Positions 1 to 10,000 are shown, counted from the stretch's first letter. The stretch: 10,000 bases of DNA from Mytilus trossulus (GCF_036588685.1 NC_086380.1:33520313-33530312); one strand, 5' to 3'. Translations and numbers: made by a program. Notes: generated by a model not told the origin, from the sequence alone.

Positions 1-2302
1 TGAGGGTACTTTCTCTAAAAATGAGGGTACTTTTTATATGGCCTTCCAAATACCGTTTCGATCCCTAACATCACTGAAGAGACATTTATTGTCGAAATCA
101 GGATATGGTGTACTAAAGAAATATTGACACCGAATGTTTGTGGCACAACATACTGTCCACAAGTTAACAATTTTTTTTTCTGTGACGTATTAAATTTATA
201 TTAGGATCCATTTTGTTACATCTTGTGATCAATTTTATTTGGCAATCGTCAATGGCAGTCAGCAGGGTTAAAGAACATCAGTTGTTCGACCTGTTAGTCA
301 AATGCGTTTTGTTTAAATATACTTTTTCACTCTTTTGGTCTTTTGGAAAATGTTGTTTGTGCTGTTTTTAGACCCTTTTACAACGAAATTTGTTTTACAT
401 GCACACGTATAAAAACTGCGGTTTTTATCCAACGCAGTCATAGGTTTGAACGTAGTTTTCAATTTAGACTCGTTTATATTTTTTGTTTGGGCATGTATCA
501 TATTTTCCCTCTGGTTTATATGATCCGTTCATCCTATATATTGACTCTTAAAATTCAAGAGTTAATCTAAAAATGAGGGTACTTTCTCTAAAAATGAGGG
601 TACTTTTTATATGGCCTTCCAAATACCGTTTCGATCCCTAACATCACTGAAGAGACATTTATTGTCGAAATCAGGATATGGTGTACTAAAGAAATATTGA
701 CACCGAATGTTTGTGGCACAACATACTGTCCACAAGTTAACAATTTTTTTTTCTGTGACGTATTAAATTTATATTAGGATCCATTTTGTTACATCTTGTG
801 ATCAATTTTATTTGGCAATCGTCAATGGCAGTCAGCAGGGTTAAAGAACATCAGTTGTTCGACCTGTTAGTCAAATGCGTTTTGTTTAAATATACTTTTT
901 CACTCTTTTGGTCTTTTGGAAAATGTTGTTTGTGCTGTTTTTAGACCCTTTTACAACGAAATTTGTTTTACATGCACACGTATAAAAACTGCGGTTTTTA
1001 TCCAACGCAGTCATAGGTTTGAACGTAGTTTTCAATTTAGACTCGTTTATATTTTTTGTTTGGGCATGTATCATATTTTCCCTCCGGTTTATATGATCCG
1101 TTCATCCTATTGACTCTTAAAATTCAAGAGTTAATCTAAAAATGAGGGTACTTTCTCTAAAAATGAGGGTACTTTTTATATGGCCTTCCAAATACCGTTT
1201 CGATCCCTAACATCACTGAAGAGTCATTTATTGTCGAAATCAGGATATGGTGTACTAAAAAAATATTGACACCGAATGTTTGTGGCACAACATACTGTCC
1301 ACAAGTTAACAATTTTTTTTTCTGTGACGTATTAAATTTATATTAGGATCCATTTTGTTACATCTTGTGATCAATTTTATTTGGCAATCGTCAATGGCAG
1401 TCAGCAGGGTTAAAGAACATCAGTTGTTCGACCTGTTAGTCAAATGCGTTTTGTTTAAATATACTTTTTCACTCTTTTGGTCTTTTGGAAAATGTTGTTT
1501 GTGCTGTTTTTAGACCCTTTTACAACGAAATTTGTTTTACATGCACACGTATAAAAACTGCGGTTTTTATCCAACGCAGTCATAGGTTTGAACGTAGTTT
1601 TCAATTTAGACTCGTTTATATTTTTTGTTTGGGCATGTATCATATTTTCCCTCTGGTTTATATGATCCGTTCATCCTATATATTGACTCTTAAAATTCAA
1701 GAGTTAATCTAAAAATGAGGGTACTTTCTCTAAAAATGAGGGTACTTTTTATATGGCCTTCCAAATACCGTTTCGATCCCTAACATCACTGAAGAGACAT
1801 TTATTGTCGAAATCAGGATATGGTGTACTAAAGAAATATTGACACCGAATGTTTGTGGCACAACATACTGTCCACAAGTTAACAATTTTTTTTTCTGTGA
1901 CGTATTAAATTTATATTAGGATCCATTTTGTTACATCTTGTGATCAATTTTATTTGGCAATCGTCAATGGCAGTCAGCAGGGTTAAAGAACATCAGTTGT
2001 TCGACCTGTTAGTCAAATGCGTTTTGTTTAAATATACTTTTTCACTCTTTTGGTCTTTTGGAAAATGTTGTTTGTGCTGTTTTTAGACCCTTTTACAACG
2101 AAATTTGTTTTACATGCACACGTATAAAAACTGCGGTTTTTATCCAACGCAGTCATAGGTTTGAAAGTAGTTTTCAATTTAGACTCGTTTATATTTTTTG
2201 TTTGGGCATGTATCATATTTTCCCTCCGGTTTATATGATCCGTTCATCCTATTGACTCTTAAAATTCAAGAGTTAATCTAAAAATGAGGGTACTTTCTCT
2301 AA
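1..2302. repeat. Tandem satellite array 1: four monomers (573, 569, 573, 569 bp, an A/B dimeric higher-order pattern) plus the first 23 bp of a fifth monomer
   Basis: Direct sequence identity. The unit boundary motif 'aaaaatgagggtactttctct' recurs at 569, 1138, 1711 and 2280. The ORF-track copies at 313/886/1455/2028 give periods 573, 569, 573. B-type units differ from A-type by CTCTGG->CTCCGG and a 4-bp ATAT deletion (cctatatattgac -> cctattgac). Confidence 0.95.
569..610. repeat. 21-bp internal tandem duplication at the monomer boundary (aaaaatgagggtactttctct + aaaaatgagggtactttttat), repeated in every monomer
   Basis: Seen directly. Two adjacent 21-mers are 18/21 identical. The same pair occurs at 1138-1179, 1711-1752 and 4159-4200. 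Confidence 0.85.
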
Positions 2303-2325
2303 TCAAAGTGATGGATATCACTCAT

Positions 2326-2351
2326 GGAAAGATTAGAACAGTAGTTTAAAT
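2326..2351. repeat. Left TIR-like end of the insertion: GGAAAGATTAGAACAGTAGTTTAAAT
   Basis: Reverse complement of 3582-3606 is GGAAAGATAAGAACTTGTTCTAAAT. About 19/25 positions match, including the identical leading GGAAAGAT and AGAAC. The left copy lies 23 bp inside the junction (2303-2325 = tcaaagtgatggatatcactcat, itself a small hairpin agtgat/atcact). Confidence 0.45.
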
Positions 2352-2420
2352 TATTTCATATTAAGGTATGTTGGGGGAAAATGAACATTTATAGAGCACT
2401 ATTGCTGAAAATTGCATTTA

Positions 2421-2626
2421 CAGAGGGGGGAAAGGACCTTTATCAGGACTCCGGGAGCGAGTGTTTTTTAAGCTCGGGATTTTGGGATTAACCCTTTCGG
2501 AATCCGGGAATCCTTTTTTTCTGATTTCGGGACGTCGGGATTTACTTTATTTAAATTCGGGACCTCAGGATTTCTTTTTTTTAAGTCCGGGATTTCGGGA
2601 CCAGGACCCCTACTATCCCCCCTCTT
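2421..2626. repeat. GC-richer ~200-bp module: ~30-bp minisatellite (about 5 copies, consensus roughly tTCGGGAynTCGGGATTT + T-run + aag) bracketed by a perfect 9-bp inverted repeat AGAGGGGGG / CCCCCCTCT
   Basis: Seen directly. TCGGGA(T/C) or TCCGGGA pairs at ~2449, 2473, 2497, 2526, 2556 and 2585, each followed by a T-run. Inverted repeat arms at 2423-2430... more precisely 2422-2430 and 2617-2625. MITE-like, but no target-site duplication identified. Confidence 0.6.
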
Positions 2627-3581
2627 AACAGCAGGTTTTTAGAAGGAAATAATGCTTTTCCATTGAGAGGATAAAATGAGCTCAAATTAAATAATATGAA
2701 TCTCTAAATTTTCACAATTTTATTTAAACTGCAGTTTATATCTAATCTAAATTAATATGTTGCCAGTTCAGAACATGTTTTAAAAAATCAAAAAAATGCA
2801 AAATCCGTCTAGTAAATGTTATAAACTATCCTTGTAAGACAAAAAAATAGACCAACAGCTAAAAGCTTTAAAGTGGCAACAAATATAATCTAAAAATGTT
2901 GTTTTGGGGCATTTTGTAAGTTGAAACAGAGGTTATATGGCATTGAAAATACTTGAATACCTTTTATATATTCATATTTATATTCATATTTCATTTTTTT
3001 TAAATCTTGTTACTCCATTAATCATTTAAATATAATCTTTCAGATATAATTTACAGAATCACTGTATGTAATGTAGATCAAAAGTAATTGGCAATAAATA
3101 AATCTATAATCCTTATGAATATCAAACATCTAATATACACATTTGTGTATTCAATTATGAGGTCAAATACTTGTGTATTAAGAATTATATCATATTTTGT
3201 GTGGTCTGTATAATTATGTAAGACTGAGGTTGATAGGTAATGTGGTCAATTTGATTGGCAGTTTAGGAGGTGGGGCATTGTAATTAAAGGTCCACCTTGT
3301 CTCTGATTGATTAGTGATAATGACAGTGGTCAATCATACTAGTGGAATCAATACCCATTTACCTAATCAAAATGTTTTTAAAAAAGCCTGCACATCAACA
3401 CACCTTAATTACATACAATCTTGAATGAACTGCTCCAATAATATACCCAGTTTTTTTTCAGTTTATTTGTGTAGTATGTGCATATTCATGAGAACAATAG
3501 GGAACTATATTTTAGTGTGAATACATTTAGTAACAGTAGCTAACCTGTCCTGTTGTTAGGGAGGGTGGTGCCTAAGTAAAG

Positions 3582-3606
3582 ATTTAGAACAAGTTCTTAT
3601 CTTTCC
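3582..3606. repeat. Right TIR-like end of the insertion (inverted partner of 2326-2351), abutting the resumption of the satellite at 3607
   Basis: See the partner feature. It ends exactly where the satellite sequence aaaaatgagggttctttttatatgg resumes. Confidence 0.45.
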
Positions 3607-5205
3607 AAAAATGAGGGTTCTTTTTATATGGCCTTCCAAATACCGTTTCGATCCCTAACATCACTGAAGAGTCATTTATTGTCGAAATCAGGATATGGTG
3701 TACTAAAAAAATATTGACACCGAATGTTTGTGGCACAACATACTGTCCACAAGTTAACAATTTTTTTTTCTGTGACGTATTAAATTTATATTAGGATCCA
3801 TTTTGTTACATCTTGTGATCAATTTTATTTGGCAATCGTCAATGGCAGTCAGCAGGGTTAAAGAACATCAGTTGTTCGACCTGTTAGTCAAATGCGTTTT
3901 GTTTAAATATACTTTTTCACTCTTTTGGTCTTTTGGAAAATGTTGTTTGTGCTGTTTTTAGACCCTTTTACAACGAAATTTGTTTTACATGCACACGTAT
4001 AAAAACTGCGGTTTTTATCCAACGCAGTCATAGGTTTGAACGTAGTTTTCAATTTAGACTCGTTTATATTTTTTGTTTGGGCATGTATCATATTTTCCCT
4101 CCGGTTTATATGGTCCGTTCATCCTATATATTGACTCTTAAAATTCAAGAGTTAATCTAAAAATGAGGGTACTTTCTCTAAAAATGAGGGTACTTTTTAT
4201 ATGGCCTTCCAAATACCGTTTCGATCCCTAACATCACTGAAGAGACATTTATTGTCGAAATCAGGATATGGTGTACTAAAGAAATATTGACACCGAATGT
4301 TTGTGGCACAACATACTGTCCACAAGTTAACAATTTTTTTTTCTGTGACGTATTAAATTTATATTAGGATCCATTTTGTTACATCTTGTGATCAATTTTA
4401 TTTGGCAATCGTCAATGGCAGTCAGCAGGGTTAAAGAACATCAGTTGTTCGACCTGTTAGTCAAATGCGTTTTGTTTAAATATACTTTTTCACTCTTTTG
4501 GTCTTTTGGAAAATGTTGTTTGTGCTGTTTTTAGACCCTTTTACAACGAAATTTGTTTTACATGCACACGTATAAAAACTGCGGTTTTTATCCAACGCAG
4601 TCATAGGTTTGAACGTAGTTTTCAATTTAGACTCGTTTATATTTTTTGTTTGGGCATGTATCATATTTTCCCTCCGGTTTATATGATCCGTTCATCCTAT
4701 ATATTGACTCTTAAAATTCAAGAGTTTAAAAATGAGGGTACTTTCTCTAAAAATGAGGGTACTTTTTATATGGCCTTCCAAATACCGTTTCGATCCCTAA
4801 CATCACTGAAGAGTCATTTATTGTCGAAATCAGGATATGGTGTACTAAAGAAATATTGACACCGAATGTTTGTGGCACAACATACTGTCCACAAGTTAAC
4901 AATTTTTTTTTCTGTGACGTATTAAATTTATATTAGGATCCATTTTGTTACATCTTGTGATCAATTTTATTTGGCAATCGTCAATGGCAGTCAGCAGGGT
5001 TAAAGAACATCAGTTGTTCGACCTGTTAGTCAAATGCGTTTTGTTTAAATATACTTTTTCACTCTTTTGGTCTTTTGGAAAATGTTGTTTGTGCTGTTTT
5101 TAGACCCTTTTACAACGAAATTTGTTTTACATGCACACGTATAAAAACTGCGGTTTTTATCCAACGCAGTCATAGGTTTGAACGTAGTTTTCAATTTAGA
5201 CTCGT
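3607..5205. repeat. Tandem satellite array 2: same monomer family. Two near-complete units (552 and 569 bp) plus a 478-bp truncated third unit
   Basis: Unit starts at 4159 and 4728. The first unit begins at the second 21-bp sub-repeat (monomer position 22). The unit 2/3 junction lacks 4 bp (gagttaatctaaaaatg -> gagtttaaaaatg). The array ends inside ...tttagactcgt at 5205. Confidence 0.95.
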
Positions 5206-5216
5206 ATATATATATA
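5206..5216. repeat. (AT)n microsatellite at the right edge of the satellite array
   Basis: atatatatata directly follows the truncated monomer. Confidence 0.8.
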
Positions 5217-5342
5217 CAACTCGTCTAAACATCAACCCAACAATGTTGTAGGGTTGTCACTGACTCAGGGGCCAATGATGGTGATACATGGCTGTGTACA
5301 TAATGTATATACAACTCGTATAAACATCAACCCAACAATGTT
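5211..5342. repeat. Pair of 37-bp direct repeats (tatatacaactcgt[c/a]taaacatcaacccaacaatgtt) at 5211-5247 and 5306-5342, 95 bp apart, 36/37 identical
   Basis: Seen directly. They flank a 58-bp unique spacer (gtagggttgtcactgactcaggggccaatgatggtgatacatggctgtgtacataatg). Confidence 0.85.
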
Positions 5343-5451: not shown

Positions 5452-5455
5452 GTGT

Positions 5456-5521
5456 GTTACAGTAAATAGGTGAAATTCGGAATTACATGTAATTAATAAA
5501 ATTTCGGAATTACCTGTAATT
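5456..5521 (-). repeat. Left copy of an ~66-68-bp inverted repeat pair (partner 9244-9311). Contains the perfect 14-bp palindrome AATTACATGTAATT and a dense set of GTAATT/AATTAC motifs
   Basis: The reverse complement of 9244-9311 aligns at about 56/68 (~82%). The first 40 bp are 36/40 identical (gttacagtaaata[g/c]gtgaaatt[c/a]ggaat...gtaatta) and the last 11 bp are 11/11 (tacctgtaatt). Confidence 0.75.
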
Positions 5522-6954
5522 CCCGATACACTTAGCAAATACAAGTAATTCCTGAATCTGTCTAGTTATAACCAGTAATTACTAGTTTTTAAATGATTTT
5601 TTTAAAGGTGATAAAACAATGTTATAATATGGCAAGCTGATGAAAAATAAGGATAAAACAGTGAACATTATCAAAAAGTGATCAACCTAAAATGTACCTT
5701 TTTGTTATATTAAAGGGTATTAGGCACTGTTAGCTATATAATGCAAAAAAATACATTATATGTTTTGTTGTTGTTCAATCAAATTATAATTCGATTTTTT
5801 TAAGATAAGTTTGGGTCATTTTTTTTTTCTCAAAATAAGCTAAGAAACATGGCTGATGAGTTATTCACTTGCAAATGAATAATTCAACCTCAATGTAACC
5901 GTTAAGCTGGAGCTGGGTTACACATGTATTCAGCTATTAAAAAGGATAGAATGACAAAATTGAAAGTAAAACAAAAGGGATGCACCATTTGGTTTACTGG
6001 GTCGATCCACAATAAGCTCATTCACATACATGTAAAGGTAAATACGACATTCGTTTGATGTGTTTGAGCTTTTGATGGTGCTATTTGATTAGGACTTATA
6101 GTTATAAATTGACTATGAGGGTCGGTTGAAATACAGATTTACGACAAGAGATGATTTCAGCATCCCAATTGTGACTTTTCCTTTTTTGTTTTTCAAATGG
6201 TGAAGTTGAAATCATCACTTCTTAAATTTTACGGACGCCATCACGAGTTGGCTGACCGTTATGGAATATCCGTTTCACATATGACACTGGATATGTTGCT
6301 TATGTCGTAGCTATAATCCATTTCTCTTTTCACGAAAGTGGGACAACCGAATTAGACTATGTACCGGCCCTGTAATAACACGAGTATTACGACGAGTGCC
6401 ATATGTGGAGCAGGATCTGTTTTCCCTTACGGAGCACCTTAGATCCCCCCCAGATTTTGGTTGGATTCGTGTTGCTTTTTCTTTACTTTTTCATGTTGTG
6501 TCTTGCAAGTCTTAACCTTTTTTCAGCCATGGTGTTGTCAGTTTATTTACGATCTATGAGTTTAGACTTGGAACAGGCACCTGCGTTATGTGCTGTGGTA
6601 AACCAGTTTTGCCGAATACACACACGCCATTTTTCCCACTCAATAATTTATATGTGTGATTAATGATGTAAAACCAATACAGCACTGAACATATTGTAAA
6701 ATTCCACCCTAAAGCACCAAACCTACCTAGAAATAATGATGTTCATGTGTGTCTGTCTGTTTGCAAGTCAGGACTAGTTTCTTCATAAGGATTGGTGGTT
6801 TCGATTTGTTATGCGACACTATCAATATGTCAATAGCCGCAGAACATCGAGTAAACATGTACATGTATTTTAATTCTTAATGGGTAATCATTTTTGCTAC
6901 AAAAAAGGTGTTGATAACTGCTATATGACATGTGCAGTACAATTTTTGTACAGG

Positions 6955-6978
6955 TATATGTGAGCCAAAATTTGTTCC
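6955..6978 (+). repeat. Left terminal inverted repeat of the 1.23-kb element
   Basis: See the element feature. Confidence 0.7.
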
Positions 6979-7030
6979 TGTGAAAAAAGTTCCAGTGGAA
7001 CTAATATGTTCTGGGAGAACTTTTTTCACA
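6979..7030. repeat. Hairpin with perfect 14-bp arms (tgtgaaaaaagttc ... gaacttttttcaca) and a 24-nt loop containing its own small palindrome gttccagtggaac, immediately inside the left TIR
   Basis: Seen directly. Arms at 6979-6992 and 7017-7030 are exact reverse complements. Confidence 0.85.
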
Positions 7031-7080
7031 GACAATTTCTATATAATTTGTTCCATCTATATGAAATAAGTTCCACACTT

Positions 7081-7244
7081 TACCTGGTGAAATAAGTTAT
7101 GGGTTGGTGAAATTTGTTCCTTACCTAGTGAAATAAGTTCCATGTTTGTGAGATTTGTTCCTTACCTGGTGAAATAAGTTCTGGATTTGTGAGATTTGTT
7201 CCTCATCTGGTGAAATAAGTACCTTGTCTATGAAATTTGTTCCG
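7081..7244 (+). repeat. Subterminal tandem repeat: 4 copies at an exact 41-bp period (tacctggtgaaataagttNNNNgtttgtga[a/g]atttgttcct)
   Basis: Units at 7081, 7122, 7163 and 7204. Each holds one GTGAAATAAGTTCC-type half and one GTGAnATTTGTTCC-type half. Degenerate copies continue outward to ~7046. Inverted copies of the same motifs fill 7999-8182. Confidence 0.85.
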
Positions 7245-7760
7245 CTGGTTAAACAAGTTATGTTACATACTGAGCACTTGTCATCAGTGAGTTTAAAGTC
7301 ATTATAAAAAACATGTTTTATAATTGATAAGGTAATAAATAAAAAGTGTAAACATCAAATTTGGATCATGTGGAGTAAAGCAAAAGTTAATAACATTATT
7401 CTCAATAAATAATACTAAAAATGACACTTATGAACCAGGAAAGAGTAGAATAAATAATAATAAAAGTCATTCCGAAAAAAAGAATTATAATAGTTAAAGA
7501 TGAATATTTGTACTTTTTCAAAATGGACAAAGTGACTGATCAATTATATTTCAAGACATAGAAAAACAAAAGACACTCTCTTTAAAAACTGTGAAATGAC
7601 AATAGCTAAGTACATGTATGATTAGAACACCCATAACAGATCAACAGGAAATTAAAGGAGGTGGAATACCACTTCAATGATAAAATAGATACAAATTATG
7701 AAACATTATGATTCTCATCGCTTTTATTTCTTATCTTCATCCTAAAGTCATGCCTTTAAT

Positions 7761-7828
7761 CAATCTCCCATGCAGAGTTCTCGGTCCTTGAGAGAGAGCA
7801 AGGACCGAGAACTTTGCATGGGAGATTG
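7761..7828. repeat. 68-bp near-perfect palindrome (30-bp arms, 29/30 complementary, 8-bp AG spacer agagagag), flanked by the 9-bp direct repeat GCCTTTAAT at 7752-7760 and 7829-7837
   Basis: Left arm caatctcccatgcagagttctcggtccttg. Right arm caaggaccgagaactttgcatgggagattg. One mismatch (C/T). The identical 9-mers abut both arm ends. Confidence 0.9.
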
Positions 7829-7998
7829 GCCTTTAATTGCAAATGTACCCCATGCAAGCACAGTACTTATTTCCTGTGAAACAGGTTTCATCAGAACATT
7901 TTCATTGATTTCTATAAAATACCTTCTTTCAAAACTAATATCACACAAACTTAATTCACTTTTTTTAAATTTTAATATTGGAACAAAACTCATACATT

Positions 7999-8182
7999 GT
8001 CATAGTGCTGTGATTTTTGTTCCGGAACTTATTTCACACTTGGTTAGAAAATTAGTTCTGGAACAAATTTTATAGTGCTGGAACATATTTTCTGTGACAT
8101 AAGTTCCGCTGGAACATATTTCCTATGAAATTTGTTCCAGAGGAACAAATGTCACGCCGGAACAAATTTTTTGTTACATATA
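7999..8182 (-). repeat. Right subterminal arm: inverted copies of the GTGAAATAAGTTCC / GTGAAATTTGTTCC motifs with repeated GTTCC-N(0-3)-GGAAC palindromes (gttccggaac, gttctggaac, gttccgctggaac, gttccagaggaac)
   Basis: Seen directly. ggaacttatttcac is the reverse complement of gtgaaataagttcc. The same palindromic motif class occurs in the left arm (gttccagtggaac 6990-7002, gttctgggagaac 7009-7021). Confidence 0.8.
8159..8182 (-). repeat. Right terminal inverted repeat of the 1.23-kb element
   Basis: See the element feature. Confidence 0.7.
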
Positions 8183-8881
8183 CAGGCTTAAGTTTGGAGG
8201 TCTTTAGAAAGTCATATAAAAGAGACACTTAAAGCCATCATTTTGTATAATTTTATTTATGAAGAATGTCACCTTCAAGTTGCTTATTCTTTAGTTTTCT
8301 ATGTCATGTGTCATTGGTTCTATTGTTTGTCTATTTGTCTTCTTTCATATTTAGCCAGGCGTTGTAAGTTTATGTTCAATTTATAAATTTGACTGTCCCT
8401 CTGGTATCTTTCGTCCCTATTTCAATGCAAATTCTAACAACAGAAGTCTTAGTTTAAAATAATTTGTCTGATGAATTAAATTATTTCATATGTCAAGTTA
8501 GTCTGATTGATATGCAAAGTATGCTTATTAATAGAGATTTTAATGTTTCCTGATGAATAATCATTATCTTTCAACCATATATGGCATAATAGAATGTCTA
8601 TCATCAAAAAGAACGAACGAGAATTCTCACAAATGTATTTCTCATATATTGATTATATGATTGTCTTGCATGTTGAAAACGATTTTTAGCGAGTTTCAAA
8701 AATTATAAAGCAACCATTTCCCTATTTCAATTCACAAACAAATTTATAAAACATACAGTCTTTGATTCCTTTACATATACGTAATCTCTACAATCCCTAC
8801 CCCGTTACTTTATTATTTGGTATATTGATGTATGTCTCAATTTTAATACAAATTAAAATATCAAGTTTGTGAATAGCTGTA

Positions 8882-9243: not shown

Positions 9244-9311
9244 AATTACAGGTATTTACTGAATTGTGTAGTAATTACGTGTCATTCCTAATTTCACGTA
9301 TTTACTGTAAC
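9244..9311 (+). repeat. Right copy of the inverted repeat pair. The two copies bracket ~3.86 kb (5456-9311)
   Basis: See the partner feature. Either TIRs of a ~3.9-kb composite element, or two inverted copies of a short dispersed repeat. Confidence 0.75.
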
Positions 9312-9691
9312 ATATACACCTGTGAATCTGCAGTCACAACTCTAAGGAACTAATTACCTAAAAATCTGACACCTATAATTTCATTGTGTAATTTAAAAGA
9401 ATCAAGCTGTATTAAAGAAATGTGGTACACAAATGTTTCTTGTAAACCATTTAAAAGGAGTAGGTCCGGTAAGGACCGATTTTGGCCTCAAATTTTAGTT
9501 TCATCTGATGAAAGATTTTGACCACTTTTTAAACACTTAAGTTTCTATTTCAATGGTTTCGATTAATTTATGTGAAAGATTTAAACTTATTTCGTCATTA
9601 AAAACGATCCGATTCAAGCTCAAATACGGAAAATCTACTAAATATGCGGAAAAATGTCACTTTTCACATGGTTTTTGTCCAAAACGAAATT

Positions 9692-9788
9692 GGCCCCATC
9701 CGTGTTCATCCTCAACCTTTATATATGTTATGTATCATCATCAAATACAACTTCCATTTCAATATTTTGGATGAACACGAATGTGGCC
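9692..9788. repeat. Inverted repeat with 20-bp arms (ggccccatccgtgttcatcc / ggatgaacacgaatgtggcc, 18/20) separated by a 57-bp AT-rich loop
   Basis: Seen directly. Arms at 9692-9711 and 9769-9788. Confidence 0.7.
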
Positions 9789-10000
9789 ACTTTCTTTATA
9801 CACGGAAACCGTCTAAAATTTAAGTAAAATGCTGAAATTGTTACGATTTCAGTAATTTAGCATGACTTTATGGTGCTAGTACCCAATATATGTGCATTGT
9901 ATTTTCAAAAACAGTCCATATTTATGTAGCAGAACCATTTTACTATCCAATAAATAACTAAAAGTTTACATTTTAACAATTTTGTAAAACTGCCATATTT

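Follow-up and report, generated by a model that had tools for sequence, protein, structure and literature searches.

A 15-bp repeat fills the inverted ends of a putative non-autonomous transposon, most likely of Ginger2/TDD type, and gives rise to its recurrent GTTCC palindromes

Many cut-and-paste transposons have, as a textbook property, short motifs reiterated in both orientations inside their two ends, and such repeats are an ordinary feature. In the CACTA elements, subterminal motifs are cis-determinants bound by a protein that the element itself encodes; in En/Spm, the reiterated subterminal motifs are bound by TNPA. Likewise, the subterminal repeats of the Emigrant/Lemi1 system are bound cooperatively by the transposase, and the tandem repeats in the terminal inverted repeats (TIRs) of Galileo carry extra binding sites for its transposase (THAP). 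Two further groups are of interest here for their termini and target sites. Ginger2 elements make a 4-bp target-site duplication at RTATAY targets, have TGTNR termini and TIRs of ~50-180 bp, and include a family in a snail (PMC2836005). On repeats inside the Ginger2 ends, PMC2836005 makes no mention of 'subterminal' or 'tandem'. Ginger elements have also been reported in bivalves. GingerRoot elements have a 6-bp target-site duplication, TA..TA termini and TIRs of 100-150 bp, and sequences related to them occur in animals.

The locus described here lies in a stretch of 10,000 nt (the window), which is AT-rich (~32% G+C), rich in repeats and devoid of long ORFs, and which looks like non-coding eukaryotic DNA. 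An inverted repeat (I9) and the alignment of its arms delimit what appears to be a non-autonomous DNA transposon of ~1.22 kb at positions 6959-8178 on the plus strand. Its 5' end reads TGTGAGCCAAAATTTGTTCC, and the reverse complement of its 3' end reads TGTAACAAAAAATTTGTTCC. Both its anatomy and its apparent identity as a transposon come from this single copy. The element has no coding capacity, and its middle (~700 bp) is AT-rich and non-coding. Pfam searches with seven ORFs or peptides of the element and the window returned nothing, and neither exact look-ups of ORFs of the window nor homologue searches gave a match in the protein collection. The middle of the element also contains a separate nested insertion that is outside the motif system, a near-perfect 68-bp palindrome at 7761-7828 (I1) with 30-bp arms and an 8-nt loop (fold -34.8 kcal/mol). 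This palindrome is flanked by an exact 9-bp duplication, GCCTTTAAT, at 7752-7760 and 7829-7837, and looks like a tiny hairpin-type MITE inserted in the GTTCC-rich element. Its only Rfam matches are sub-threshold and miRNA-like.

Relatives of the element were sought in several collections. One pattern scan of metagenome contigs gave no match and another 120 unrelated matches, and a BLAST comparison of the window with those loci found nothing. The scan of prokaryotic genomes gave 62 loci, most of them belonging to a 21-bp tandem repeat of Prevotella sp. CAG:891, and the sole BLAST match between the prokaryotic loci and the window was one chance stretch of 79 bp. Two loci came from the viral collection, both unrelated, and searches of literature text with the unit described below and with other sequences of the window returned primers and unrelated matches only. 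The Prevotella repeat, GGAACTAATTTCAACAAGCTT, forms dozens of dispersed arrays of 2 to ~25 copies (locus L178 at 3944-4460, locus L121 at 1587-1650, and ~40 further loci); it contains GGAAC, is unrelated to the window by BLAST, and is a case of convergence.

The first-pass annotation of this DNA had described a recurrent palindrome, GTTCC-N(0-3)-GGAAC, in both arms of the element, and the palindromes are indeed there. Exact GTTCC-N(0-4)-GGAAC occurs four times (6989-7001, 8019-8028, 8103-8115 and 8134-8146) compared to an expectation of 0.02 from 200 shuffles. When GTTCY/RGAAC is allowed, two more dyads are found (7008-7020 and 8055-8064), bringing the total to six against 0.14 expected. All six are inside the element; the four exact ones have spacers of 0 or 3 bp, and the other two contain GTTCT/AGAAC. 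Shuffles that keep the half-site count of the arms and randomize placement give 1.27 dyads, and six were attained in 0.01% of 20,000 such shuffles. The half-sites themselves are concentrated in the arms, whose 511 bp contain 20 of the 23 GTTCC/GGAAC sites of the window and in which GGAAC is the commonest 5-mer. The annotation's tallies were too high. It had counted at least seven dyads, six of which stand, and the seventh, gttccgctgg at 7239-7248, is followed by a decayed direct unit. Its estimate of about 20 further half-sites was an overcount, as the arms contain 20 exact sites altogether, or 26 units if decayed cores are included (12 in the six dyads and ~14 alone). Furthermore, the dyads are not independent events. 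The two dyads of the left arm match two dyads of the right arm position for position because the arms are homologous inverted repeats, and both of these right-arm dyads are neighbours within a 31-bp tandem duplication.

The repeated entity is a 15-bp unit, TRTGAAATWWGTTCC, of which 26 copies were located by core and context. Alignment of all sites on the core gave a position matrix that reads T-R-T-G-A-A-A-T-W-W-G-T-T-C-C; informative positions run for ten bases on one flank of the core, and past the core they end immediately. A 12-mer, GAAATWWGTTCC, has 35 matches in the window at up to two mismatches compared to 6.1 expected window-wide, and 26 of the 35 fall inside 6967-8170. Neighbouring units are mostly 0-11 bp apart, with one gap of 14 bp and three overlaps. 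The core is located at the 3' end of the unit, and therefore two cores abut wherever a reverse unit comes after a forward unit. Six such forward-to-reverse switches exist, each with either a 0-bp or a 3-bp gap, and they make up the six dyads. In other words, GTTCC-N(0-3)-GGAAC is the tail-to-tail junction of inverted 15-bp units and no motif by itself. The notion that the short palindrome is the motif has to be given up, as unit footprints tile 73% of the two arms and a change of orientation alone yields GTTCC-N(0-3)-GGAAC.

The two arms are homologous in inverted orientation over their outer ~115-120 bp, with ~75% column identity. By the arm alignment, the left TIR (6959-7074, plus strand) and the right TIR (8060-8178, minus strand) each carry seven units in an identical order and orientation, > > < > < > >, which bears out the earlier placement of the motif in two arms of a transposon-like element. 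The cores start at 15, 30, 38, 49, 57, 91 and 111 bp from the left terminus, and at 15, 32, 40, 63, 71, 94 and 114 bp from the right terminus. In both 20-bp termini, the inner half consists of the first of the units, AAAATTTGTTCC. Within the seven-unit stretch, there is no case of a core lost from one arm and kept in the other. The dyad spacer has kept its length of 3 bp in both arms, and its sequence differs between them. Inward of these seven units, the left arm continues as a 41-bp tandem repeat present four times (7080-7243, plus strand; D1), which amounts to eight direct units. Their two alternating forms are ..ATAAGTTCC and ..ATTTGTTCC, their cores are spaced by 20/21 bp, or about two helical turns, and they form no dyads. 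Cores of the ..AAGTTCC type vary in the array (GTTAT, GTTCC, GTTCT and GTACC); only the ..TTGTTCC type is invariant. A decayed last direct unit, CTGGTTAAACAAGTTATG (7244-7262, plus strand; D4), occupies the gttccgctgg junction, and decayed unit copies are also present at the inner edge of the right arm (7859-7900; D2, D3 and I4). The tandem duplications of the arms thus comprise the 41-bp repeat (four copies), a 31-bp repeat (two copies) and a 20-bp repeat (two copies), and together they include about half of the units and two dyads.

At a larger scale, the dyads pair and, with the adjoining halves of units, form three palindromic modules of 54-62 nt, which consist of four units each (> < > <) and align with one another. 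Their folds were computed as single-stranded DNA, with z-scores against shuffles. Module L1 (6978-7031; I23) has 15-bp arms that are 100% complementary and a fold of -14.8 kcal/mol (z -5.96); its dyads are at 6989-7001 (GTTCCAGTGGAAC) and 7008-7020 (GTTCTGGGAGAAC). Module R2 (~8009-8074; I11), located also by the module alignment, has a fold of -12.4 kcal/mol (z -5.6) and dyads at 8019-8028 (GTTCCGGAAC) and 8055-8064 (GTTCTGGAAC). Module R1 (8094-8155; I5) has 29-nt arms that are 86% complementary, a fold of -22 kcal/mol (z -11.9), and dyads at 8103-8115 (GTTCCGCTGGAAC) and 8134-8146 (GTTCCAGAGGAAC). R1 can also be read as the 31-bp tandem duplication (8077-8138), the repeat being a head-to-head pair of units. 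L1 and R1 are retained as local hairpins when the whole element is folded. Single dyads with their units form weak hairpins of -1.5 to -4 kcal/mol, with one at -9. An earlier suggestion that each palindrome could nucleate a cruciform is therefore tenable for the four-unit modules (-12 to -22 kcal/mol; z -5.6 to -11.9) but not for the single short palindromes. The outer units of the modules differ at bases five and seven of the 15-bp unit, both being GTGAAAA in L1 and both GTGACAT in R1. These bases change alike on the two sides, so that the palindrome is preserved. At gathering thresholds Rfam returned no match, and at E-values up to 1 it gave sub-threshold miRNA-like hairpins only.

To which family does the element belong? 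Its target duplication and termini suggest that it is most likely of Ginger2/TDD type, a type with an integrase-like DDE transposase. Direct-repeat enumeration, the sequence itself and the Ginger2 criteria of PMC2836005 place TATA at 6955-6958 on the left and at 8179-8182 on the right as the preferred 4-bp target-site duplication, seen in one copy. Together with G at 6954 and C at 8183, TATA gives a reconstructed target, GTATAC, that agrees with RTATAY in this one copy. The termini, TGTGA at the 5' end and TGTAA as the reverse complement of the 3' end, agree with TGTNR, and the TIRs of ~115-120 bp with their seven units in common are in the Ginger2 size range. Direct-repeat enumeration also gives an exact 6-bp duplication, TACAGG, at 6949-6954 and 8181-8186, and the two duplications are mutually exclusive readings of the boundaries. 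If TACAGG is the target-site duplication, the element would span 6955-8180 and would be a non-autonomous transposon of IS3EU/GingerRoot type with 5'-TA...TA-3' termini (TATATG at the start and ACATA at the end), and the mechanism proposed below would be unchanged. This assignment deserves some weight, as no other exact direct repeat at the boundaries is as long as TACAGG and the duplication, termini and TIR length known for GingerRoot are found here, but on the whole it appears somewhat unlikely. Alignment of the termini then requires an offset of 2 bp, and the coincidence of TATA, RTATAY and TGTNR is left unexplained. This copy has no coding sequence that could represent the IS3/IS481-like transposase of the IS3EU/GingerRoot group. 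The one copy is compatible with both Ginger2/TDD and IS3EU/GingerRoot. The Ginger2/TDD boundaries are preferred because an outer element with similar termini fits TATA followed by TGT and does not fit a 6-bp duplication.

The outer element is a second pair of inverted ends that encloses the whole region (5455-5521 and 9244-9312; 83% identical over 69 bp). Its termini, TGTTACAGTAAATA... (TGTTACA...), resemble the right terminus of the GTTCC element. TATA adjoins the right end of the outer pair, and the left TATA is set off from the terminus by an extra TGTG. The outer ends carry a dyad repeat of their own, AATTAC-NN-GTAATT, which occurs five times (at 5481, 5508, 5537, 9244 and 9273) compared to 0.17 expected. 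The outer pair may belong to a larger element that is of one superfamily with the GTTCC element and has it nested within.

Foldback, CACTA and hAT were considered and rejected on termini or duplication length. Long inverted ends of short tandem repeats around a non-coding middle are found here as in Foldback elements (FB-like, Mutator-related), but the 8-10-bp duplication of that group is absent and no exact repeat at the boundaries exceeds 6 bp. An assignment to CACTA (En/Spm) fails for lack of both CACTA termini and a 3-bp duplication, the termini being (TATA)TGTGAG and (TA)TGTAAC. In the case of hAT, the best pairs of 8-mers match at 6-7 of their 8 positions and leave termini that cannot be aligned; furthermore, TATGT is unlike YARNG, the consensus of hAT termini. 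The picture is mixed for Tc1/mariner/pogo elements. Their TA duplication can be read at both boundaries, solely within the longer TATA and TACAGG repeats and in an AT-rich setting. The termini of Tc1/mariner/pogo elements are of CAGT type, and those of this element are not.

Several other repeats were noted in the window. A tandem satellite of ~571 bp occupies positions 1-5205, and its spacing alternates between 573 and 569 bp, which suggests a dimeric higher-order unit. The satellite is interrupted at ~2303-3606 by an insertion of ~1.3 kb, which holds a 30-bp repeat at 2526-2600. Just past the end of the satellite, a 40-bp direct repeat (5208-5247 and 5303-5342; 95% identical) surrounds ~55 bp. 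Two fragments on the same strand, at 6180-6575 and 8290-8420, apparently belong to one dispersed repeat, which is presumably common in bivalve genomes; a bivalve origin of the window is suspected on this ground. An 86-aa ORF at 6403-6663 from the first of these fragments and the 'FYGRHHELADRYGISVSHMTLDM' peptide have no homologue in the protein collection. Near the end of the window, an imperfect palindrome of 159 bp (9662-9818), 68% self-complementary, overlaps several short ORFs.

What might the 15-bp units do? The favored reading, which is held to be probable, is that they are subterminal repeats inside the long inverted ends of a non-autonomous cut-and-paste transposon, most likely of Ginger2/TDD type, and that they are putative docking sites. 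By analogy with the subterminal repeats of CACTA, hAT and pogo-like elements, binding of a transposase or accessory protein would be their most likely function. The first-pass annotation had proposed a transposase or a host factor as the binding protein; binding of a transposase or accessory protein is, by analogy, the best available explanation, and what does not survive is the dyad-symmetric palindrome as a separate motif. In the proposed mechanism, the 15-bp subterminal repeat fills the long inverted ends in such a way that the first unit coincides with part of each terminus, further copies follow in a fixed order at both ends, and the left end goes on as a direct array. The units would serve as candidate docking sites for a protein of an autonomous relative, either its transposase or an accessory DNA-binding protein. 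Dimers may read the tail-to-tail pairs of units, and the large number of sites could help in assembling and pairing the two ends. The multiplicity of the units together with their two-turn phasing might also favor cooperative loading and end pairing.

The first-pass annotation had itself named an outcome that would speak against its reading, namely that all instances of the motif trace to one duplicated unit. This turned out to be partly true, as there is a single repeated unit with one consensus common to all copies, and several dyads are tied to one another by arm homology or tandem duplication. One possibility is that the repeats are a neutral by-product of slippage and of tandem and inverted duplication as the ends grew, as in foldback-like elements, with no binding role beyond the terminal copy. 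The tandem duplications would explain about half of the units and two dyads, dense tiling makes a dyad automatic wherever the orientation changes, and the drift of AAGTTCC-type cores inside the 41-bp array agrees with a neutral origin. However, the seven-unit architecture is common to both ends, and in matched left and right units the GTTCC core is still 94% identical when the ten bases upstream are down to 63%, a comparison that is partly circular, the units having been found by their cores. A neutral origin also does not account for a dyad spacer that is 3 bp in both arms though its sequence differs, or for the unrelated dyad repeat in the ends of the outer element. Growth of the ends by neutral duplication alone is thus judged unlikely.

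Another alternative to protein docking is that structure matters and not sequence. In this model, the modules extrude as hairpins or cruciforms for recognition or processing of the ends, or serve as precursors of small-RNA hairpins when transcribed. The folds of L1, R1 and R2 and the persistence of L1 and R1 in the fold of the whole element agree with this model, as do the paired changes that keep the palindrome, but symmetric binding of a protein predicts identical paired changes as well, and with two or three modules only the covariation is anecdotal. Furthermore, the eight-unit left array is without such hairpin potential, single dyads are weak, and the RNA-family matches are merely generic miRNA-like hairpins far under threshold. 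A purely structural role is therefore quite improbable. The weakest alternative, that the dyads are host transcription-factor sites of heat-shock factor, STAT or nuclear-receptor type spread by the element, is hardly credible when compared with the consensus sites of these factors: two dyads contain TTCnnGAA and one, TGTTCC-AGA-GGAACA, has the form of everted steroid-receptor half-sites, but a three-unit heat-shock element is lacking, as is TTCnnnGAA, the conservation of the unit reaches 10 bp past the core on one side only, unlike such sites, and the spacings TTC-N2-GAA and TTC-N5-GAA are incompatible with one factor; all three readings were rejected on spacing.

Putative docking sites in the form of subterminal repeats change little by themselves, and mild novelty is confined to the family assignment and the four-unit modules. 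A striking short palindrome has been shown to be a junction artefact of a longer 15-bp unit, and a non-coding element has received a concrete family assignment, Ginger2/TDD versus IS3EU/GingerRoot. The unit also supplies a candidate recognition sequence and a site architecture for a group of transposases for which the literature consulted gave no description of end recognition, and it could help to match the element to an autonomous partner in the genome. The dyad repeat of the outer element suggests that transposons of this group regularly carry dyad repeats specific to the family. A bolder generalization would be that integrase-like transposons with TGT termini and TATA targets carry family-specific dyad repeats, such as GTTCC-N-GGAAC here and AATTAC-NN-GTAATT in the outer element, arranged as four-unit modules at fixed distances from the termini, which are read by transposase dimers or pairs of dimers or as hairpins. 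This generalization is speculative and rather doubtful; if true, the cis-acting architecture of such ends would thereby be described for the first time.

How does the element compare with the known systems that have repeated subterminal sites? It resembles CACTA elements (En/Spm and Tgm) in that a short motif is repeated many times, in direct and inverted orientation, over a few hundred bp inside both ends, and in that the ends are asymmetric. TNPA prefers tail-to-tail pairs of its motif. Unlike CACTA elements, the present element has no CACTA termini and no 3-bp duplication, its motif is unrelated, and its host is an animal. Like the Emigrant MITE and the pogo-like Lemi1, and also like Sleeping Beauty with its inner repeats, it is non-autonomous and has a subterminal repeat that is the inner half of the TIR. 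However, the extra motifs of Emigrant number about two per end, against 11-15 motifs per end here, some of them inverted, and a TA duplication is possible for this element without being the best reading. FB of Drosophila, Galileo and Tetris likewise have a non-coding middle between long inverted ends composed of short tandem repeats, and non-autonomous copies. The duplications of FB, Galileo and Tetris are 7-10 bp long and these elements belong to the Mutator or P groups, whereas the duplication here is 4 or 6 bp and the ends are shorter (~200-300 bp). With the boundaries set at 6955-8180, IS3EU/GingerRoot elements are similar in their 6-bp duplication, TA..TA termini and inverted ends of 100-150 bp, and they are dissimilar in the 2-bp offset between the termini of this element. 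Ginger2/TDD elements differ from this copy in the integrase-like gene, which it lacks, and they are alike in the 4-bp duplication, the RTATAY target, the TGTNR termini, inverted ends of ~50-180 bp, the existence of non-autonomous derivatives, and their presence in molluscs.
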